Positions 45,553 through 63,932 of a DNA stretch of 64,000 bases are shown here, piece after piece. This DNA is from a virus, in the IMG/VR virus record IMGVR_UViG_3300042695_002264, positions 32,001-96,000 of that record; one strand, written 5' to 3'. The notes beneath the pieces were generated by a model that was given only the letters and a program-made list of their open reading frames with translations, had not been told where the DNA came from and made no database searches. Made by a program: the position numbers and the translations under genes. How positions within the stretch are numbered: the stretch's first letter is position 1; the number at the start of each line of letters is the position of its first letter.

Positions 45553-45987
45553 TGGTGGAGGTGAGGGGAGTTGAACCCCTGTCCAATTAATTTACATTAA
45601 AAATTCTACATGTTTATGTGTTTTTGGCGTTTGATTGGCTAAAGGCCACCTTGGCAACACAAGCCTAACTTTTAAAGCCTGCCTATGCAGAGAACGTTCT
45701 GCATAACGCCCAACAATTATTTTTACAATTAAGTTGGCTTGGTAAACCTATTGCGTTTCCAATGCTTTTAATAGGATCCAGACATTGGTTCTTAGGCTGC
45801 TAAGAGCATTTCGTCCTCAACGCCAGCGAGAAACTCGTCAGCGTTGTTGAAGATATACTCGGCTTCAGCCAAGATATCAGAAGTATTATCTTCTGCGTTT
45901 AGTTTTTAATCGATTTTTAACGAGGCCGTCGATCAACCTCGACATGCATTTTTAATTTCAACTAGCTGTCGAAACCAATACACCCCC
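45553..45987 (-). ncRNA. ssrA: tmRNA
   Basis: 5' GGGGGTG...TTCGAC, 3' GGTTCAACTCCCCT-CACCTCC-ACCA with G3.U pair; GCATG/CATGT helix; tag ORF 45792..45896 ending LLAA. Confidence 0.95.
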
Positions 45988-53234: not shown

Positions 53235-54242
53235 TCAATTAAAATCTGCACTGCCATAATGTGCGGGACAACCAGCGTATTCTAGCTTTTCCCATGACTG
53301 ATTATCGCCTACCTTTTCGTACTGAAATTTTTCTAGATAATCTTTTTCAAGAACTGTTTTAATAATATTTTTATTCTCATCGAATAGTCTGTAGTAAGAA
53401 AATGGATCGCGGAATGAGCATTTCCATCCAGACTTTGCGCCACACTTCCATCTTCTTGAATTATCATATAGAGCATAATCATTTTTTGCGTCTTGTTCGT
53501 CAAAATTAGAAATGATAGTATTCACATAAGATAAATAGTGCCGGAATCCTTCAATTTGCTCTTCAGTAAATTCAAGCTCTTGGAATGGATTTTTGGCAAA
53601 TCGTAAAAAAATAAATCGACCAATTACCTTTTTAAAGTTTGGAATTTTACCAGCCTTCTTTAAGAAATGTGCTGCAAGAGTATACATCATAGCTTGCAAA
53701 TTACTCTCAAGCTCTTCACCTCTAAACTGCTGCTTGCTTGACTTATAATCAGAAATAAAAATTGATTCTGTTTTTTTATTAAAAAGTATTTTATCTATAT
53801 AGCCAACAATTCTAAATTCAAGCTCTTCGTCAATAATATCAAAAGCATATTCCGAATCAAGAATTTCTTCGTGATCTTCTGGAAAAAATCCAGCTTCAAG
53901 ACCTACCTTAATCATTTCATAAATTAAACCTATGTTTGTTTTTTTTGATTTTTTATCCTCTTCAAACATTTCTAGCCCGTACTTATGACACTTGGCTCTT
54001 AAAAATCTTTTTATTAATGGGAACTTTTCAATATCGCAATCTGCTTCGTGCATTTCTTTTGCAAAACGTATCCATTTCGGCTTTGTTAAGAGTTCAAAAA
54101 GGTCATGGCATACTGATCCTCTTAAAGCTCCAGAGTTTGTCGTGTCTGGAAGTTTAAGATGATATTTGCTCCAATATAGCCATGAGCACTCTCCAAGGGT
54201 TTTAACCCTAGAAGCTGAAAGCTTTGTTAGTTCTTTATCCAT
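53235..54242 (-). CDS. PD-(D/E)XK nuclease (AddB/RecB/Cas4-like)
   Basis: LSASR...C, GSVCH, GYIDK, DYKS, QAMMY, C-terminal Cys residues. Confidence 0.85.
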   Translation of the reverse strand: MDKELTKLSASRVKTLGECSWLYWSKYHLKLPDTTNSGALRGSVCHDLFELLTKPKWIRFAKEMHEADCDIEKFPLIKRFLRAKCHKYGLEMFEEDKKSKKTNIGLIYEMIKVGLEAGFFPEDHEEILDSEYAFDIIDEELEFRIVGYIDKILFNKKTESIFISDYKSSKQQFRGEELESNLQAMMYTLAAHFLKKAGKIPNFKKVIGRFIFLRFAKNPFQELEFTEEQIEGFRHYLSYVNTIISNFDEQDAKNDYALYDNSRRWKCGAKSGWKCSFRDPFSYYRLFDENKNIIKTVLEKDYLEKFQYEKVGDNQSWEKLEYAGCPAHYGSADFN

Positions 54243-55116
54243 TTAAAATATTATTTATTTCTTCTTTTGAAGATTCACCCCAATCCTTACATTTAGGAAG
54301 GCGTATTTGAATCTGATCTTTGTTAAAAAATTCAAAAAGAGATTGCTGCATCTTTTCGGCAGCATTGTTTCCAGCAAAATTATTATCTGAATCATTATTT
54401 GTTGATATGATAATTCTATCAGGATCTGCTGCAATTAGCGATTTTAATATTGCCCTACCCAGCTTAAGCCCGAATAAAACTAAAAAGTTTTTGACACCAG
54501 CTTCCCAAAGTGCAAGACCATCGCCAATAGATTCAACAAGGATAATTTCTTTTTTATTTAAAATATCATCTTTATTCAAAAATGCAGGATATACCCAAGA
54601 ATCAACAGATCCGAGATGTTTCCATTTCGGAGTATTTTTAGATATTTTTTTGCCAATCCATCGCCCAGATATGCCGATAAATTCATTACGGTTATTTTTG
54701 ATTGGAAAGACGTAGCGATTATACATTGCGCTTTTGGTTGTTTTTGGTATAACTCCACCAAGAAAGAGTTCTAATGTGGCGTCACTAATACCCCTTTCAT
54801 TCCAATAAGAGTGATTTTTTTGCAAGCTTTCTAATTCACTTTTATCAAAAACTTCACCAGATGAAACTATAGTTTCTTTTTTAACTGGTATTTCTAAATT
54901 ACCATCAAATTTTCCACCACTTATTTCTACAAGCTTTTTAAAATCCCCACCTGTACCCCTTGCAAAATCAATCCATTTGCCAGAATCTTTTAGAATTCTT
55001 AATGAAGAATCGTTATCTGAATCACGATAAATTGGCTTTGTGCGCCACTCCTTCCCGCGATCAAGAAGTGTATATCCCAACCCCTCTAGGACAGTTTTGA
55101 AATCTACACTTGTCAT
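54235..55116 (-). CDS. dnaG: DnaG-like primase (TOPRIM)
   Basis: YWNERGI, RYVFPI, GISGR, PKW, LVESIGD, NND, KDWGE. Confidence 0.85.
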   Translation of the reverse strand: MTSVDFKTVLEGLGYTLLDRGKEWRTKPIYRDSDNDSSLRILKDSGKWIDFARGTGGDFKKLVEISGGKFDGNLEIPVKKETIVSSGEVFDKSELESLQKNHSYWNERGISDATLELFLGGVIPKTTKSAMYNRYVFPIKNNRNEFIGISGRWIGKKISKNTPKWKHLGSVDSWVYPAFLNKDDILNKKEIILVESIGDGLALWEAGVKNFLVLFGLKLGRAILKSLIAADPDRIIISTNNDSDNNFAGNNAAEKMQQSLFEFFNKDQIQIRLPKCKDWGESSKEEINNILNG

Positions 55117-56591
55117 TACAACAATCCATCTTCTTGATTTTCATTTTCAAATACGTTAACATCAACATTTCTTGCGTTAACGACATCTTCAAGCGTTCCA
55201 CATTCGCTAACTTGAAAATTTTCAACCTTATAATTAATAAAGTTAGGTTTGTAAGTGACTCTGCCTCGGTCATCGACAACGCGAACAAGATTTGAGTGAC
55301 CCCTTGCATTTTTACCCTGATAGCGCGTAGCAAGCTCAATATACTTATGAGTGCCAAACTGGACACCATCTTCAGCCTGCTCTTCGATTGTTTTTCTTCT
55401 AAAGATACCAACTTGAGAAGCAAACCACTGTAAACGATCTGACTGTGCAATGGCGCTAGAGTCATCTGTGCCACCCTCTGCCGATCTGTTTAATTGACAT
55501 GCAGTAAGTAGTGGAATGTTTAAGCGCAAATGACATTCTTTTAGCTTATCAACCTTTTCTCCAATAAGCTGATATTCTTGCTTATTTCCATCAGATTCTC
55601 CTGTAAGCTTAATATAGTCATAAACCACAATTGCAGGATTTCCACGACCAACATCACCATAATACCAGCGCTGAATCAAAGAAGTAATTTCTTCTGTCTT
55701 TTTTCTTGCAACTGTCATGTGCTGAACATGGCCAAGAGCTTGTTTTAATTCTTGCTTTTTGGATTCAAATTTTGCATACAACTCTCTATTCTTTTTATAA
55801 TTTCCCGTTTCAAGCCACCACATTGGAACGCCAGTGATTGCACTTGCAATTCTAAATTTCATATCTTTAGTTTGCATTTCGGTATCCAGAATTAAAGCCT
55901 TGCAATTTGGATTAAGCAATGCTGTTTTAAATGCAATATCATTCAAGATTGTGCTTTTGCCGTGCTTTGGTCGAGACACCCAAGCATATACCTCTCCATT
56001 ACGAAGACCGCCGTACATTTCATTAAAATTTTTATATGGAGTAACGAGACCAGTATCGTTGATAGGATTATCTCCTCGCTCCTCAATCATTTCAACAATG
56101 TCATCAAAAAGATCTTCAGGCTTTTCATTAAGATTATATGCTGAGATTTTTTCTCCATACATTTTATCAGCCAATGCAACAATTTCATCAGCTTCCATTT
56201 CCCCAGCAGAAATCATAGACTGGGCCATGCTTGAGGCCATTGTGTGTATGTCACGCCTAATAGAAAGTGTTTTTAATCTACGGCATGCATCTTCCAAAGC
56301 CTTATCGCTAATCTTAATGTATGAAAGGCTCTGTAGATAATTTAAAATATCTAAATTTCCTTTATAGGTAATGCCAAGGCTCTGCAGTCTTTCTGAAACG
56401 AGAACTGGATCGCTTGACTTATTATGCAAAGCGCAGTCTTTTAGTATTGCAAATATAGCACCGTGAGGCTTATGAATAAAGTCTTCTTCAGAAATTAAAT
56501 GAATTAACTCAAGTAGCTTCTTGGGATTCTTTAAGAACCCTGCTATACAGTGTTTTTCAATTGTTTGATTTGCGATCTTGTCTTGATTCAT
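55116..56591 (-). CDS. dnaB: DnaB-like replicative helicase
   Basis: SRPKHGKS, DTEM, VYDYI, CQLNR. Confidence 0.92.
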   Translation of the reverse strand: MNQDKIANQTIEKHCIAGFLKNPKKLLELIHLISEEDFIHKPHGAIFAILKDCALHNKSSDPVLVSERLQSLGITYKGNLDILNYLQSLSYIKISDKALEDACRRLKTLSIRRDIHTMASSMAQSMISAGEMEADEIVALADKMYGEKISAYNLNEKPEDLFDDIVEMIEERGDNPINDTGLVTPYKNFNEMYGGLRNGEVYAWVSRPKHGKSTILNDIAFKTALLNPNCKALILDTEMQTKDMKFRIASAITGVPMWWLETGNYKKNRELYAKFESKKQELKQALGHVQHMTVARKKTEEITSLIQRWYYGDVGRGNPAIVVYDYIKLTGESDGNKQEYQLIGEKVDKLKECHLRLNIPLLTACQLNRSAEGGTDDSSAIAQSDRLQWFASQVGIFRRKTIEEQAEDGVQFGTHKYIELATRYQGKNARGHSNLVRVVDDRGRVTYKPNFINYKVENFQVSECGTLEDVVNARNVDVNVFENENQEDGLL

Positions 56592-57202
56592 TGCGGCTTG
56601 ATTTGGCTATAAATAGGCTTAACAACATTATAGTGATAACTATCAAAATTGTCAATTTCAATATTACTCATTGTGTGCCAAGTTACAGCAAAATCAGCAT
56701 ATTCTTTGATCATCGGCGAATTTGCTTTTTCTTCGAAATTGGCTGGGTCAATCAGTTTGTTGTGTTCAATTCTTTCAAGGTGAATTAATTTTCCACCTTG
56801 AGATTTAATCCAGTTATGTTCGTCTTGTTCGTATTCGGCATATCTAATATCTGGAATAATTGCAATAAATGGTTTATCGCTAGATACAGAATGGGCATCT
56901 GCTACAATTTGTTTTTGCAAGATGCTAGTCCAATATGTTCCATTGGTTCTTATTCTTTGAATTTTTCCATAGCTAACTAATAGTTCACGAAATTTTGATT
57001 TTTCATTCGTGTCTTCTGTCCAAACATTCATTGAGCATTTTTCAGCCAGAAATTGCTGCATATCTTTTTTAAGCTCATTTGCTAATGAGTATTTTTTAGC
57101 AATAAATCCATCGCGTTTAAATAGCTCTATAAGACAATTTGCGAACGTATCCTTGCCGACTCTAGCTGCGGCACCAACTCCAATAAGTTTAATTTTATTC
57201 AT
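56588..57202 (-). CDS. deoxynucleoside monophosphate kinase
   Basis: GAAARVGKDT, SLANELK, IPDIRY..E. Confidence 0.8.
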   Translation of the reverse strand: MNKIKLIGVGAAARVGKDTFANCLIELFKRDGFIAKKYSLANELKKDMQQFLAEKCSMNVWTEDTNEKSKFRELLVSYGKIQRIRTNGTYWTSILQKQIVADAHSVSSDKPFIAIIPDIRYAEYEQDEHNWIKSQGGKLIHLERIEHNKLIDPANFEEKANSPMIKEYADFAVTWHTMSNIEIDNFDSYHYNVVKPIYSQIKPQ

Positions 57203-57731
57203 GTGCTAAAATTTTCCAATACTTGGGGTCTGCATAAATTTCTCCAGAATTAATTTTCATTAAATATTCAACGATTTCACCCCAGGATTCAAATACAAGA
57301 TCCATATTAATAAGCCCAGCCAACCAAAGTGGAAATTTTTTCTTATCATCAGTATAAATAAGAATTGGCTTATTCTGCAAAGACGCAATTACAATCTCGT
57401 GTATTGTTCCGAAAGTCGGGACTTCTGGATCAATTTTTCCAATAATAAAAGTAGAAAGATCAACCATGCGAAGGTCACGGCTAATAACACCTTTCATATA
57501 TTTAGAAATAGATTTCCAATCACCACATTCTCTTTGAGTTTTTAACTTATCTCTATCTTCTTGCGTTTCTGTAAGCTGGTTTGCAAAATGGTCATTATTT
57601 GGATCGAAACATTTTATGCCAATTTGTTTAACCGCTTCTGTTATTGTAATACGCCAATCAAAACAATTATCTGAATATTCAATTGGGCCAACCAAATAGC
57701 AATAAGAATTTTTTAAAAGTTCAAGATTCAT
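57195..57731 (-). CDS. nucleoside 2-deoxyribosyltransferase-fold protein
   Basis: YLVGPI...WR...FDP...DLRMVDLS...GTIHEI...KP. Confidence 0.8.
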   Translation of the reverse strand: MNLELLKNSYCYLVGPIEYSDNCFDWRITITEAVKQIGIKCFDPNNDHFANQLTETQEDRDKLKTQRECGDWKSISKYMKGVISRDLRMVDLSTFIIGKIDPEVPTFGTIHEIVIASLQNKPILIYTDDKKKFPLWLAGLINMDLVFESWGEIVEYLMKINSGEIYADPKYWKILAHE

Positions 57732-58171
57732 GAATCATTATTAAAGCAATATTTGCTCTGTATATCAATATTAAAAGTATTTTGTACCCATTCTAGGCTT
57801 AAATTTTTGATATCATTTTCGTTTATTCTAATGATAAAAAAGCCATTGTTTTGTAGCCACTCATCTTTTTTTTGGTCGCGCTTCAAGCTATTTAAAAAAC
57901 CAATTCTATTTTTGTGATGAAATTTTGAAAATGTATTGTGGAAATTACCATCTGCCTCCACAGCAAACATTTTATCAAAATTAATTAAATCACAATTTAA
58001 TTTTGTTCCTAGTACGGGAAACTCTTCAACGCAATTATCGTACTTCCAGTATTGTTTAAAAAACTGTTTTATATTAAACTGGAATTTACTTTTAGAGCCT
58101 TTATCCCAATTAATCCTGTATTTTTTTAACGATACACTTTTTGCCCTACCAAAAACATCTATAAGCCTCAC
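57728..58171 (-). CDS. DUF559/Vsr-like endonuclease
   Basis: EEFP, CD, AVEADG.FH, RDQKK...G...IRI. Confidence 0.8.
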   Translation of the reverse strand: MRLIDVFGRAKSVSLKKYRINWDKGSKSKFQFNIKQFFKQYWKYDNCVEEFPVLGTKLNCDLINFDKMFAVEADGNFHNTFSKFHHKNRIGFLNSLKRDQKKDEWLQNNGFFIIRINENDIKNLSLEWVQNTFNIDIQSKYCFNNDS

Positions 58172-59298
58172 ATTGTTAGATCTTTGAATCTGTCAAAAAG
58201 ATATTTTTGAATTGGTTCACTATCTTCAATGAATTGACGAAGGCCATTAACTCCCTGAATTTTTTCTGGCACTTCAATATTTAAAGATGCAGCCATTTCA
58301 GTTCTGAAATTTGGTTCTAGTTCAAACCATGCCCCTTTGCCATTTGGTTTGTAGGCAATTTCCCAAAGCTGAAGTAGATCTGCTAGCTCATAGCTTGTCC
58401 AAACGCTTTTGCCGCCTTTTTGGCCATAACGAATTGGGTATTTAACTTCAACCATATTCTTTTCGTTATTGCTCTTTACAATCTTGGCTTTGGCAAAATG
58501 GCCAACTACTTTACTGCCCTTTTCTCCTTCATGGATCAAGTCTCCACCAAATCGTGGAAGAAATTCAATAACAACGTCTGCTTGGTGTTCAAGCGCTCTT
58601 GGACCACTTGCCTTGCCCTGCTTTGGAATTGCAATTTCGTATGGATTAATTTTAATCTGATCACGAATTTGTGAAATATAAATATCTACGTGACCACGCT
58701 TTGCCATTGCCAAGCCAACCTTTTTAAGAAAGACAGATGTAATCAAGCTTCCGCCGCCAACAGTAATAGATTCATCTTCAGCTTTTTTAGCATCATCTCT
58801 TTTGATCAGAGAATCAACCGAGTCAGTAATAAAAAAGTATTCTGTGTTTGTTGGATTATTTGTAATAAGGTCTCGTTTTAATTTAAAAACAGCCTCGTAA
58901 ATATTACTTTCAAATACGAAACATGAGCCGTCTATCCACTCTGCTGTATTATAAACAAATTTAATACCTGATCTATCTCTTATTTCTTCAGAAAGGCGCC
59001 CCTCACTTTTGATAAAGATTCCTCTGCGTTTTCTTGAACGGTCATTCAAGAAATGGTGCATAAAATCAAGGGATGCGCTGGTTTTGCCACCAGAAGCAAG
59101 ACCAACGAACCTGTGAGCGCCAGGCCCTAGGCCGCCACTCAGCATAGAGGTAAGAAGAAGGCTGGAGCATCCAACTTTGTAGTCGTGTGCCTCTTCATAG
59201 TTATAGTGATCTTCTTTTGTTGATTTTAAGATAGATTCCAGCTGATCTTCTGGAGCCATTACTTTTTCTGTTTCTGTTGAAATTTTACCTTTAGCCAT
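58168..59298 (-). CDS. recA: RecA/UvsX-like recombinase
   Basis: GLASGGKTS, SEG, ITDSV, ISQIR, ASGPRALEH. Confidence 0.88.
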   Translation of the reverse strand: MAKGKISTETEKVMAPEDQLESILKSTKEDHYNYEEAHDYKVGCSSLLLTSMLSGGLGPGAHRFVGLASGGKTSASLDFMHHFLNDRSRKRRGIFIKSEGRLSEEIRDRSGIKFVYNTAEWIDGSCFVFESNIYEAVFKLKRDLITNNPTNTEYFFITDSVDSLIKRDDAKKAEDESITVGGGSLITSVFLKKVGLAMAKRGHVDIYISQIRDQIKINPYEIAIPKQGKASGPRALEHQADVVIEFLPRFGGDLIHEGEKGSKVVGHFAKAKIVKSNNEKNMVEVKYPIRYGQKGGKSVWTSYELADLLQLWEIAYKPNGKGAWFELEPNFRTEMAASLNIEVPEKIQGVNGLRQFIEDSEPIQKYLFDRFKDLTM

Positions 59299-59300
59299 AG

Positions 59301-59663
59301 TTATTTTTTCCAAATTTTTAAGAAATCATTAAGTGATTTTAACTTTTCTTTTTTTGGTTCTTCAGTTAGTATAGCAGGTTTTATTTCTTTTTCAATATCT
59401 TCTTCTATTTCAAAATGCTTTATTTTTTCTGGATTGAATTTGTATTTAGCCCACTCCTCTTTAAGGAATTTATCACCATTTGGAGTAATAAACCAAGCAA
59501 GGCTGGGAATTTTAAACTTTAATTCAAGGCCCATCCAGAAAGCTTCATCCTCATGTTTAGAGGAAAGCTGATTCATTATTTTCATTTCTCTTGGCCAATT
59601 GGTATGTTTGCCAAGATGTTTGGATATAAATGATTTTTTAAATGAACTGCTATTTTTTTGCAC
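59301..59663 (-). CDS. hypothetical protein
   Basis: ORF heading the replication operon. Confidence 0.65.
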   Translation of the reverse strand: MQKNSSSFKKSFISKHLGKHTNWPREMKIMNQLSSKHEDEAFWMGLELKFKIPSLAWFITPNGDKFLKEEWAKYKFNPEKIKHFEIEEDIEKEIKPAILTEEPKKEKLKSLNDFLKIWKK

Positions 59664-60868: not shown

Positions 60869-63235
60869 TTATGCTTGTCCGGTCGCATATGGGCGCAATC
60901 TTTTTCTGATTTGTTGACCGGGCTCGGCACTTTCTGGAATATTCACATAAGAAAATTCACCAGACTTTAGCCAAGTAAGTTTTTGCTTGAATTTTTGCAA
61001 ACGTCTCCATTTTTTATTTTTATATGTAAGTCCGCCAGAGGCCGCATCATTGTTGTAATTATATTCACTTGGAAATATTTTATTTACAAGCTGTAATATT
61101 TTTGAATTAATTTGCTTAATTGCTGCTGTTTTGGCAATATTTCTTGCATCATTCTCGGTTGGGCCTGACTTATAGGCTGTATAAACTAGATTGTTATAAT
61201 CATCAATTGCATGGCGATAAGGATTTCTTTTTTGATGCCATGGTACCTCTCCGGAGACGATATATTGTGCTGATGGATTTGGAAATATTGTGTGTGCTCC
61301 AGCTGGGCTAATTCCTGTTTGTAGAACTTTATCAATACTGTCTAGGGTTCCATAGCCAGAATAAATAACTGAAATATTTCTATCATTTACAATTCCAATT
61401 TCAGTGTCAAGCGTGCAAGAAACCAACTCTACGGAAAATCTAACTCCTGAGGGGATTATTCCATTCCATGTTCCTGTAGCGATAACTTTATTATTATTTT
61501 TATATAATTGATTGTAAAATTTATAAAAATATGTATCTTTTAATGGATCTGCTTGTTTGAAGTGTCCATTAGGATTTATTGCATATTTTGTTCCAGTTGC
61601 TGTTCTGGTTGGGATTTGTATTCCAGAATTCAGTATTGTTTGGTAAGTTATTGATCTGCCACTGATAATGTATCCGCTCCATGCATTGCCTGTTGGCGCT
61701 GGGAGTTGTGTTTCTGGAGACATTCCTGTTGTTGCTGCTCTCCAAGCGCTATAAATAGGAACTTGATATGTATAATTTGTTTTGTATATGCCTTCTGGTA
61801 GCACCCTGCCGTCATCAATATACCGTGAATCAGGAATTAATGATGGCATTTGGAGCAGCTTTGAAAGCATTTTTCTTTCTTTTCTGCAGGTTTTAAAAGC
61901 GGATACTACCGGAGATTTAACTGATGCGCGATTCAGGTTAATTCCTGATGCTGCTCTTGGGTGACCGCTAGCAGGTATCCAAACCCCATCAAGCTTTCTT
62001 GGATCTGTTTTTTTCCAATCAGTTAGACTGTTTGGTTGATATATATATACAACGCCTCTTTGCCCCGTGTTTGTTGAGAGATTTACGTTTCCGCTTAGGC
62101 AAATAGCCCATGCGCCACTACCATATGGTGTAGATATTGTACTATCAAAATATACTTGCCTTGCTGGTTTTTCAATGTTATAAAATCTTAACCTGCTAGT
62201 ATCCTCTGATGGAATTGGTGACTCTTTATAATTTCCATTTAGCGTATCAAGATATCCATATTTTCCGCAACCAATAAATCCTGTTGTTCCAGAACCATAC
62301 CATGAAGACTGATCGATGGTGGCCAATGAGTCTGCACCAGGAACAACAGTTTTAGTTAGTAACTGTGTTTCTGTGTATAGATCTTCAATAGTGTTTAAAA
62401 AACCAGTTTCTATAGTGTGAGGGCTCACATAGCAAATTGTTTTTTGTTCAGCATCACCAGTTGATATTAGTAATAGCCCGTTTATTGATTGTTCCGTTGG
62501 CGATTGGCCATTGTCTTGGTTAAATTTAGGAGCCAATTTGACTGGTACATTAAAAACTGGACTATCATAAACAGATACTGCGTTTGGATATGGGATATTG
62601 AACCCACTAAGATTCATATTATCATATGGTGATTGTTGCTGTCCAGATTGAAATTGAGTGGATTGCTTATGCCAGCGATAGTATGCCTTTCTTGATTCCT
62701 CTTTTGATAATTTTCCTACAAATTTTGGGGAAAGTTCTTGTTTGCCAGAGCGTGTTTGGATTTCAATATCTAATGTGTTTGATGCTTTTTCTGGAAAGCG
62801 AAATCTTGCATATGAGAATGAATTTTTATTAAATACGCGTTTTACAACTTTTTCTTCTGACCATGGCTTGAAAAAATTATTGTCTTTATAGCTATAATAT
62901 TCTGAAGGAAAATGTATTTCCGATAATTGTCCTACTAGTGGGGTGTTAATGCGATATCTTACAAGAAAGTGCTCTGAAGCAATGGTCTGCCTCCATGTTT
63001 TTAAAACTTTTACTTGTGCGCTATTTCCAAGCGTGCCTTCTACTGGTTTTCTAATTACTAGATATGGATTGGTCTTTCTTAATGGGCCAACATTTTCTAA
63101 ATCCAAGAAAGCAGATTTTAGATTAAAAACTGCTGTTTTTTGCTGGTCTGTGAAGCCAATGTCTTCACCAGCCTTTGTATAGGCGCCAAAGCCTAGCTTT
63201 TGCAGGTCTTCTTTGGAAATAGAAAAATTATCCAT
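60869..63235 (-). CDS. large hypothetical, probably virion-associated protein
   Basis: 788-aa ORF with no recognised motif. Confidence 0.7.
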   Translation of the reverse strand: MDNFSISKEDLQKLGFGAYTKAGEDIGFTDQQKTAVFNLKSAFLDLENVGPLRKTNPYLVIRKPVEGTLGNSAQVKVLKTWRQTIASEHFLVRYRINTPLVGQLSEIHFPSEYYSYKDNNFFKPWSEEKVVKRVFNKNSFSYARFRFPEKASNTLDIEIQTRSGKQELSPKFVGKLSKEESRKAYYRWHKQSTQFQSGQQQSPYDNMNLSGFNIPYPNAVSVYDSPVFNVPVKLAPKFNQDNGQSPTEQSINGLLLISTGDAEQKTICYVSPHTIETGFLNTIEDLYTETQLLTKTVVPGADSLATIDQSSWYGSGTTGFIGCGKYGYLDTLNGNYKESPIPSEDTSRLRFYNIEKPARQVYFDSTISTPYGSGAWAICLSGNVNLSTNTGQRGVVYIYQPNSLTDWKKTDPRKLDGVWIPASGHPRAASGINLNRASVKSPVVSAFKTCRKERKMLSKLLQMPSLIPDSRYIDDGRVLPEGIYKTNYTYQVPIYSAWRAATTGMSPETQLPAPTGNAWSGYIISGRSITYQTILNSGIQIPTRTATGTKYAINPNGHFKQADPLKDTYFYKFYNQLYKNNNKVIATGTWNGIIPSGVRFSVELVSCTLDTEIGIVNDRNISVIYSGYGTLDSIDKVLQTGISPAGAHTIFPNPSAQYIVSGEVPWHQKRNPYRHAIDDYNNLVYTAYKSGPTENDARNIAKTAAIKQINSKILQLVNKIFPSEYNYNNDAASGGLTYKNKKWRRLQKFKQKLTWLKSGEFSYVNIPESAEPGQQIRKRLRPYATGQA

Positions 63236-63262
63236 AAATTTTTAAAATTTTTTTTGATCTTT

Positions 63263-63649
63263 TAACGTCCGTTCTTAAACACTCCTATCTAGTCAAGTCA
63301 TTTTATCCGTCCTGGCTTCTCAATCTGTTACCCTGGGGACAAGGCTGAGTTTACTTCTAGACGAATCCTCTCGGTGGACCTAACATTCTCAGAATGTGAT
63401 CGATCAATTTGTTATCGTACAGTTGTTTATACCATACATCTATATATTTCTATATAGTTCAGACTATATCTTGGTACCAAAAGTTAATTTGGCACACAGG
63501 GCGCTCTTGGGCAGTTTTATTGTTGGGACTCAACCGCCTAGTCGTTACACCTTCTGTCCTATCTTTCCCAGACAGCTTGGCTCGGTATTGTCTTTTTGGC
63601 AAGTTATTCACCAACGAAGATATCCACCGAATTCACCCCGTAAACGCTA
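63263..63649 (-). ncRNA. group I intron ribozyme (IA-like core), intergenic, apparently circularly permuted
   Basis: P GAATTCGGTG, Q AATACCGAGCC, R GTAACGACTA (63539..63548), S AAGATATAGTC (63462..63472), P3 ACGGGGTG/CGCCCTGT, P8, P9 GAAA hairpin, terminal G at 63405. Confidence 0.85.
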
Positions 63650-63698
63650 TTTAAATTTTTTAAAGAACTTGAGTAGATTTTACTACTAGCAAATACAA

Positions 63699-63704
63699 TT
63701 ACAC
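63699..63704 (-). promoter_or_regulatory. GTGTAA putative phage late-promoter motif upstream of the ribozyme
   Basis: Same hexamer precedes at least nine other transcription units. Confidence 0.6.
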
Positions 63705-63719
63705 TAAAAAATGTAGCTT

Positions 63720-63932
63720 TTACCTTTTGTTATCATTTTTTTCAAAATCCCAGCAGTAATGACAAATTTCTGGAGTTACTTTAAATATATCCCTTTTTAA
63801 ACATTTATAGCCAGAGTCTGTATAATCTCCGCCTTGACAGCTGCATCTACGGACAGTAACAGTTTCTTCTTTTTCAGATTTGTGCTTGCAGTTTTCGAAT
63901 TTATATTCGCCCGTCATATTTTCTTCGCTCAT
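63720..63932 (-). CDS. small Cys-rich protein
   Basis: CKH...CSC...C...CHYC. Confidence 0.65.
   Translation of the reverse strand: MSEENMTGEYKFENCKHKSEKEETVTVRRCSCQGGDYTDSGYKCLKRDIFKVTPEICHYCWDFEKNDNKR

Follow-up and report, generated by a model that had tools for sequence, protein, structure and literature searches.

A gene-linked family of phage group I ribozymes with a predicted circular permutation in loop L1

We analyzed a 64,000-nucleotide (nt) stretch of phage DNA (positions 32,001 to 96,000 of IMG/VR record IMGVR_UViG_3300042695_002264; referred to below as the window) in which a group I ribozyme element lies directly upstream of a gene for a 788-aa protein. Coordinates follow the numbering of the window, and the element and its neighbouring genes are all on the minus strand (-). 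The window belongs to a 170.5-kb virus record, with 15 tRNAs and a transfer-messenger RNA (tmRNA) present. Ahead of the element, an open reading frame (ORF) for a 70-aa Cys-rich protein terminates with TAA at 63722-63720; behind it, the 788-aa ORF (60869..63235) begins at 63235 with its own AUG, which is preceded by an in-frame TAA (63244-63242). Reading of the flanking ORFs therefore agrees with a preliminary description of this DNA, made from the letters alone, in that the element interrupts no gene, and it differs in this respect from a canonical gene-interrupting intron.

The Rfam group I model RF00028 covers 63722-63440 (-) across its full length with 71.6 bits (cmscan, E = 3e-16; gathering score 50). 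In this alignment the catalytic core P3-P4-P5-P6-P7-P7.1-P3'-P8-P7'-P9-P9.1 occupies 63417..63641 and is subgroup IA-like, with P7.1; it contains the conserved P3-P9 elements with the P3/P7 pseudoknot, a G-binding P7 and J8/7. The structure was evaluated on an alignment (A3) of 14 window-type sequences by counting pairs on a hand-drawn structure. In A3, 96.5% of cells were paired, compared with 88% in column shuffles and 37-42% when partners were slid. Both-side changes were present at 38 pairs and supported every core helix; the core helices were 82-100% paired, with compensatory changes in P3, P5a, P6a, P7.1, P8, P9 and P9.1. The Rfam score and the covariation thus bear out the complete minus-strand group I core of the preliminary description.

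The core is followed by the 3' terminal segment GAUAACAAAUUG (63405..63416), which is conserved in the family and ends in the terminal guanosine (omegaG) at 63405, placing the predicted 3' splice site at 63405/63404. In BLAST alignments with canonical introns of Clostridium phage tape-measure genes, homology ends precisely at G63405, the very residue that had been proposed as the terminal G. GAUAACAAAUUG is homologous to ...GAUAACAAAAUG/GAAGG of the phiCP13O tape-measure intron (here and below, a slash within a motif marks a splice site), where the exons are joined in frame, so that G63405 is the homologue of an omegaG placed by an intact reading frame. The introns in the tape-measure genes of phiCP13O and phiCP34O, together with those of Staphylococcus Kayvirus/Twort-like phages and of Lactococcus phages, fall in the same clade and have a homologous core (72% identity over 186 nt to phiCP13O; 34-nt identical stretches to the Staphylococcus and Lactococcus phage introns).

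Metagenomic phage contigs yielded about 30 relatives of the element, every one of them immediately ahead of a gene, in most cases one for a homologue of the 788-aa protein; about 20 far more divergent members were added by scanning for patterns in conserved parts of the core and leader. Homologues of the 788-aa protein, of which 21 were found (45-89% identity), are always preceded by the ribozyme: it stood directly upstream of the gene in 15 of 15 fetched loci, even where the upstream neighbours differed. The proteins encoded downstream of relative L069 and of both L071 copies are distant homologues, and a few members precede other genes. More distant phages with the Cys-rich ORF and without the 788-aa gene had no ribozyme, and no copy of the element was found in GTDB genomes. 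Core nucleotide identity is 77-94% between phages whose flanking protein is 44-89% identical, and a value of ~97% at 44% protein identity argues for strong selection on the core, tied to the gene start. On this comparative evidence the linkage to a gene start is unlike the behaviour of a mobile intron, and we conclude that the element is a member of a gene-linked family that had not been recognised before. A mobile intron in decay, inactive today, would equally interrupt no gene and carry no homing endonuclease gene, as is the case here. Such a relic is hardly credible, however, given a core strongly conserved relative to the flanking protein, compensatory changes that maintain every helix and linkage to one gene family across deep divergence.

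The canonical group I order P1-(P2)-P3...P9 is not found at the locus: the candidate substrate strand of P1 lies 140 nt past omegaG, and no P2 separates the guide from P3. The putative internal guide sequence (IGS) UAGCGUUU (63642..63649), 3' strand of the candidate P1 with its wobble G at 63647, directly abuts P3. It is complementary to the substrate (5') strand GGACGUUA (63263..63270), that is GGACGU/UA with the wobble U at 63265 and a predicted 5' splice site at 63265/63264. This pairing of the 8 nt before P3 with 63270-63263 had been noticed in the preliminary description, which named it P2, and it covaries across relatives. The core anchor GGGUGAAUUCGG gave 31 matches in all, two of them not scorable, and 29 unique ribozyme-bearing elements were counted. 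The long-range helix is present in 26 of the 29, in 13 sequence types, among them AGCGUUU with GGACGU, AGUCC with GGAU (L002/L064), GGUCC with GGACU, GGUCA with UGGCU, GGCC with GGCU, GGGC with GCCU, GCCAUU with GAUGGU, GACC with GGUU, GUCCGU with GCGGAU, and GGCCUU with GAGGCU; single pairs are substituted in L059 (C-G for U-A) and L061 (U.G for A-U).

Guides combined with their own sites gave 56 contiguous pairs, compared with 14.3 +/- 6.2 for permuted combinations, and 0 of 100,000 permutations equalled the observed value, the sites for this test being chosen by eye under positional constraints. A matching site was present in 24 of 29 downstream search windows compared with 9 of 29 upstream windows of equal size. 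An unconstrained duplex search for a partner of the guide was not discriminating, because short G.U-rich helices are common. The G.U wobble, with G in the strand entering P3 and U downstream, is found in 13 of 13 types, with one or two further pairs after it in 12 of 13, and in all 14 window-type sequences (alignment columns 84 and 477). Of the 29 elements, 27 have the wobble G exactly 8 nt ahead of GGGUGAAUUCGG; in the L073/L083 subfamily it is one nt further away.

The canonical relatives give this geometry a reference. The tape-measure exons of phiCP13O join in frame at GGGGCU/AAACUUUU-GGUC...AAAAUG/GAAGG, which identifies GGUC as the guide and GGCU/ as the 5' splice site of that intron. 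Elements L075/L086 and L074 have, like phiCP13O, a guide ..GGUC.. and sites UGGCU/AAAC and GGACU/AAAC, respectively. Since the G.U is invariant, the polarity is that of P1, the distance to P3 is fixed and the guide and cleavage contexts are like those of a canonical IGS and 5' splice site, we conclude from the alignments that the long-range helix is P1 and not P2, with G63647.U63265 at the predicted 5' splice site. The point of permutation would then be L1, not P2 as had been suggested. The covariation check over homologues that favours the long-range helix refutes the other helix of the preliminary description, a downstream P1-like hairpin (ACUU/...GAGU) with a splice site after 63295: 64% of its cells are paired, and 8 of 14 sequences cannot form the two pairs in its middle. 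That hairpin fails because its ACUU lies in helix D and its GAGU in helix E of the enclosed domain (see below), both of which are supported by compensatory changes.

The predicted 5' splice site of most subfamilies is found 2-12 nt ahead of the AUG (for example UGGCU/AAACAUAUG, GGACU/AAACAUUAUAUG, GAUGGU/AAACUAUG and GAGGCU/GAAUG). The same helix might serve a self-cleaving or structural 5'-untranslated-region (5'-UTR) ribozyme that performs no back-splicing, in which it would be a P2- or P10-like clamp. The core would hydrolyse the bond after omegaG 63405 or fold over the translation start, and the mRNA would begin with the 140-nt domain, with no circle formed. Group I introns are well known to hydrolyse their 3' splice site as a side reaction, for which no P1 is needed; omegaG and the core are invariant; the stable hairpin rod after omegaG could protect a new 5' end; P10 is weak, and a second step would be sterically hard in L071a and L071b; the GIR1 ribozyme also has a helix closing its 5' and 3' parts beside the core. 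A clamp leaves unexplained, however, an invariant G.U that has the polarity of P1 and keeps its distance to P3, a guide and cleavage context identical to a canonical IGS and 5' splice site, and the position of the downstream strand 2-12 nt before the AUG in most subfamilies. We therefore consider this explanation unlikely.

The source genome has a single copy of the ribozyme; IMGVR_UViG_3300042507_006854 has three (the two L071 copies and L083) and IMGVR_UViG_3300022752_000025 has two (L078 and L082). In these multi-copy phages each ribozyme has its own guide and matching site and stands before a paralogous or a different gene. Two or three copies with different guides in one genome could also represent stand-alone ribozyme RNAs that, once self-processed into two pieces, cut or join another RNA in trans through a free guide, or whose circular "exon" is the functional product. 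The long-range helix joins the 5' and 3' parts of the element, as in many stable RNAs, and L085 and L077 carry a strong terminator-like hairpin with a U-run directly after the element, as would befit a transcription unit of its own. Against action in trans, the guide always matches a cis site beside the start codon, the exon domains are unrelated between subfamilies, and no trans target, for which no dedicated search was made, came to light; this possibility appears very unlikely to us. In L085, a second AGUGUAAU-N8-GUU motif, with no ribozyme attached, stands ahead of the following gene, and in L077 the best match to the guide overlaps the AUG itself. The guide strand has two alternative partners in L069/L070, L073/L083 and L077, one inside the enclosed domain without a proper G.U and the other, with the G.U, next to the start codon. 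These two partners may constitute a regulatory switch.

Between omegaG and the predicted 5' splice site lies an enclosed "exon" of 140 nt (63265..63404), which is the RNA predicted to circularise. Its helices are nested into a rod that consists of helix E (63397-91 with 63285-79; 6 of 7 pairs changed on both sides), helix D (63384-77 with 63299-92; 8 of 8), a CC-GNRA-GG hairpin (63374-67; loops GAGA, GAAA or GUAA), helix A (63366-59 with 63312-05; 5 of 8) and helix B (63349-46 with 63322-19), beyond which there is a variable tip C. Helices E, D and A are 96-99% paired in the window-type sequences, and the minimum free energy fold of 63404-63265 gives the same helices. A local hairpin, H1 (63396-63382; ACAUUC with GAAUGU), excludes helices E and D yet also has compensatory changes. 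The top pair of helix E is a conserved U.G in 12 of 14 sequences. Together, this U.G and the covarying H1 hint at a conformational switch. In L055, L056 and L058 a weak H1 is accompanied by a perfect helix E. Helix E was also considered as P1, which would give a 14-nt circle; the long-range helix fits P1 far better, and the candidate was dropped because helix E has no equivalent in other subfamilies.

In the other subfamilies the enclosed RNA measures 64-184 nt. An Rfam scan of 63225-63420 (by E value) revealed no known RNA family in the exon region (only a chance long non-coding RNA match, E = 2.7) and no known aptamer that would mark a riboswitch. A 15-mer scan for the exon block returned chance matches only. 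No ORF runs across the predicted circle junction, both AUGs in the 140 nt meeting stops within 3-10 codons.

Upstream of the guide, two leader motifs are conserved. The first is GUGUAAU (63698..63704; the GTGTAA motif already noted before P3), which reads RGUGUAAW in the alignments of all family members. The second is the pyrimidine-rich block GUUCUUUAAAAA (63657..63668), which is invariant across the family. Between them the window has a hairpin AGUAG-UAAAAU-CUACU (63672..63687), an optional insertion that is paired in 83% of cells with two pairs showing compensatory change and that is missing in many relatives (L059, L063, L066 and most of the divergent members). The leader UUCUUU resembles the pyrimidine-rich L1/P10 guide of Staphylococcus phage 812 (U/AACUUUUUUCUGCU-GUGUCUC) and of phiCP13O (U/AAACUUUU-GGUC), and by this likeness the GUUCUUUAAAAA block probably corresponds to the 3' half of loop L1, or P10 guide, of the canonical relatives. 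GUGUAAU has no conserved pairing partner by duplex energies and pair counts and does not recur in the window. A role of GUGUAAU or TTTAAA as promoter boxes was rejected because the hairpin insertion breaks their spacing; a consensus scan, moreover, found no promoter. Pairing of the leader GUUCUU with an AAGAAC beside the substrate strand is not kept in L002, L064, L061 and the divergent members.

GUGUAAU could instead be the guide of an ordinary, non-permuted intergenic or 5'-UTR intron, with a 5' splice site after U63711 and a linear junction GCUACAU-AUCGAUC. The intron would be spliced out of a polycistronic transcript, and intron-exon pairing would mask the downstream message until splicing. 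Rfam indeed aligns a 9-bp P1 with a U.G in the window, and the same hairpin occurs in L053; L059, L075, L084 and L086 have an upstream strand complementary to GUGUAAU; the motif is conserved in all members; and a group I ribozyme controlled by cyclic di-GMP (c-di-GMP) in a Clostridioides difficile 5' UTR is a precedent. The upstream pairing is, however, missing in most lineages. In the P1 that Rfam draws, 46% of cells pair and 2 of 14 relatives retain the U.G, and duplex energies for GUGUAAU as an IGS are no better than those of shuffles in most lineages. The position of the U.G differs between the window and L059, and all pairs are Watson-Crick in L075, L084 and L086. The A-rich sequence ahead of GUGUAAU is not conserved, and different genes lie upstream. 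We regard an ordinary intron as most improbable, in line with the earlier remark that no convincing P1 lies upstream of P3.

Group I splicing normally proceeds by two transesterifications, the first of them carried out by guanosine. The two reaction steps and the biological role that we propose for the permuted element are deductions from the anatomy, covariation and homology described above. The order along the RNA would be the conserved leader, the guide UA-G-CGUUU (63649-63642) abutting P3, the core, omegaG 63405 and the 140-nt exon, whose last six bases, GGACGU, would pair with the guide to form P1 with the wobble G63647.U63265. In the first step, guanosine or GTP would attack after U63265 and cut the transcript, releasing a downstream mRNA that starts with the added G, as G-UAAAAGAUC...AUG (G-UAAAAGAUCAAAAAAAAUUUUAAAAAUUUAUG); the A/U-rich 29-nt leader 63236..63264 would be its 5' end. 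In the second, the 3'-OH of U63265 would attack after omegaG 63405, so that 63404-63265 closes as a 140-nt circle and the leader and core are freed. The predicted circle junction is GGACGU-AUCGAUC (63265 to 63404), which reads ...AAGAACGGACGU-AUCGAUCACAUUC..., and replaces the ~110-nt circle, joining 63295 to 63404, that had been predicted. Helix E would hold the ends of the enclosed RNA together, with linkers of 7 and 8 nt to omegaG and P1. Relative to a canonical intron, the element would have been opened in L1: the 3' half of L1 and the guide lead the RNA, the substrate strand and 5' splice site follow the exon, the first "intron" bases (AAAC...) lie downstream of the enclosed sequence, and the P2 of canonical relatives would have been lost.

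In sequence order, the 3' splice site precedes the 5' splice site and the intron parts are able to reassemble, as in the permuted intron-exon (PIE) arrangement. The stand-alone permuted topology of the preliminary description is thereby upheld, with some 30 relatives behind it, and its helix assignments and splice site are replaced. We judge it probable that the element is a natural, functional group I ribozyme permuted in loop L1, without P2 and with P1 as described, in the 5' UTR of a phage gene. We propose more tentatively that mRNA release and circle formation both occur in vivo. Selection may have acted on the freeing or unmasking of an mRNA with a short leader, the circle being a by-product or second product; release or unmasking is favoured by the coupling to the start codon and by the unconserved enclosed domain. 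The wider picture, of a ribozyme family in large aquatic phages that makes a GTP-dependent cut in the mRNA 2-30 nt before the start codon, unmasks the start and yields a circle of 64-184 nt, is possible and, in our estimate, slightly more doubtful than secure. What it would imply, a fresh (p)ppG 5' end on the mRNA and a natural group I RNA cyclase, is to be taken with the same reserve, our doubts just outweighing our confidence.

Several observations weigh against a permuted ribozyme. Short G.U-rich helices arise by chance, as the 9 of 29 control windows illustrate, and the sites of the permutation test were chosen by eye. The window has a second, equally good guide match at +22, which is not conserved; L085 has G-C in place of the G.U, and L077 and L081 fit poorly. 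A P1 that reaches P3 within 0-2 nt and without P2 is an unusual arrangement, and P10 is weak, with at most 2-3 bp to the exon start. In L071a and L071b the exon pairs from +1 to +4, so that the second step would be sterically awkward. The exon fold is no more stable than those of shuffles (z = -0.49), and exon domains are not conserved between subfamilies, which makes a function of the circle itself doubtful. Finally, the strongly conserved leader RGUGUAAW-N8-GUUCUUUAAAA (GUGUAAU...GUUCUUUAAAA in the window) is not explained by the permuted model.

Group I introns have been studied for forty years as gene-interrupting elements, and the PIE layout of group I introns has, to our knowledge, been regarded as a laboratory invention for making circular RNA. 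In the full-text literature, of which coverage was incomplete, we found no description of a natural permuted group I intron or of a phage 5'-UTR group I ribozyme. Compared with the engineered constructs (Puttaraju and Been 1992; Ford and Ares 1994; described in PMC13580324), the phage element has the same succession of 3' intron part, 3' splice site, enclosed sequence, 5' splice site and 5' intron part, and the same two transesterifications are predicted. Helix E would take the role of the designed spacers or homology arms. Engineered PIE constructs are opened in peripheral loops such as P6, whereas the natural element appears opened in L1, has no P2 and is tied to the start of a protein-coding gene; its "5' intron half", unlike theirs, is cut down to the downstream mRNA and the few bases that follow the 5' splice site. 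With the canonical phage introns the family shares the 3' end GAUAAC..G, a pyrimidine-rich L1 and, in several members, the guide GGUC and the 5' splice context GGCU/AAAC. Those introns interrupt genes in frame, with P1 ahead of the core, a P2 hairpin and, in many cases, an ORF for a homing endonuclease, whereas the phage element leaves genes intact, has no P2 and places the substrate strand behind omegaG.

Circular permutation has been described in nature for group II ribozymes, which reside on bacterial chromosomes or plasmids and are active in vitro (Roth et al. 2021, PMC8637638). They share with the phage element reversed splice sites and a small, poorly conserved predicted circle (15-86 nt there, 64-184 nt here). 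They differ in using a branching adenosine rather than exogenous guanosine, in not being tied to a start codon and in their demonstrated activity, that of the phage element being predicted. A further point of comparison is offered by 5'-UTR and mRNA-end ribozymes. The GIR1 lariat-capping ribozyme of the twin-ribozyme introns of Didymium and Naegleria, which does not splice, has lost P1, contains a P15 pseudoknot in place of part of P3/P7, has a lariat fold right behind omegaG and forms a 3-nt lariat by branching. Like GIR1, the phage element derives from group I, lies just upstream of an ORF, is predicted to make an mRNA 5' end and has a helix, of a kind that GIR1 requires, linking a strand ahead of the core to one beyond the catalytic site. 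Unlike GIR1, it retains omegaG, a G-binding P7 and a G.U-containing P1; the P3/P7 core is canonical and scores as that of an ordinary group I intron, and an Rfam scan of the whole window gave no separate GIR1 match. A c-di-GMP-II riboswitch joined to a group I ribozyme in a Clostridioides difficile 5' UTR was reportedly described by Lee and co-workers in 2010, with the normal order and linear splicing under aptamer control. In both that system and the phage element a 5'-UTR group I ribozyme reaction would decide on a usable translation start of an ORF, but the phage element has a permuted order and no known aptamer.

If the permuted reading is true, evolution found the RNA-cyclase design independently, as it did for group II introns, and phages gain a ribozyme that makes an mRNA 5' end, for which the eukaryotic GIR1 offers the sole parallel. 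The engineering of circular RNA would gain compact scaffolds that lack P2, are opened in L1 and bring natural "homology-arm" helices with them. It would also be a caution for searches that covariance models which assume the canonical order put P1 in the wrong place in such elements, as Rfam would have done here.

Two canonical loci were recorded alongside the family. In Staphylococcus phage 812 (L088, 58593-59826) two tandem group I introns (92 and 78 bits) lie in one gene, and in Lactococcus phage WRP3 (L087, 75470-76703) a related 3' intron part lies between a helix-turn-helix homing-endonuclease gene and an nrdG-like gene.

The 788-aa protein had no match in Pfam, PHROG or PDB sequences and no Atlas lead; its AlphaFold2 model was poor (mean predicted local distance difference test score, pLDDT, 49), and Foldseek returned nothing significant. 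The Cys-rich ORF upstream (62-70 aa; ..CSCQGGDY..GY.C.KR.IF.V....C..C..) matched nothing in Pfam or PHROG. Its conservation extends to related phages (window 63720-63932 (-), L002 2287-2484, L047-L050), usually after a gene for a GDP-mannose dehydratase-like protein, and the ORF occurs with and without a ribozyme downstream. The 788-aa gene heads a replication/recombination module at 53235-59313 (-) that encodes a RecA-like protein, a nucleoside deoxyribosyltransferase, a deoxynucleoside monophosphate (dNMP) kinase, a DnaB helicase, a primase and a PD-(D/E)XK nuclease. The tmRNA gene lies at 45553-45987 (-) (Rfam, 152.7 bits); it has a long insertion in the region of the tag reading frame and is flanked by tRNA clusters.

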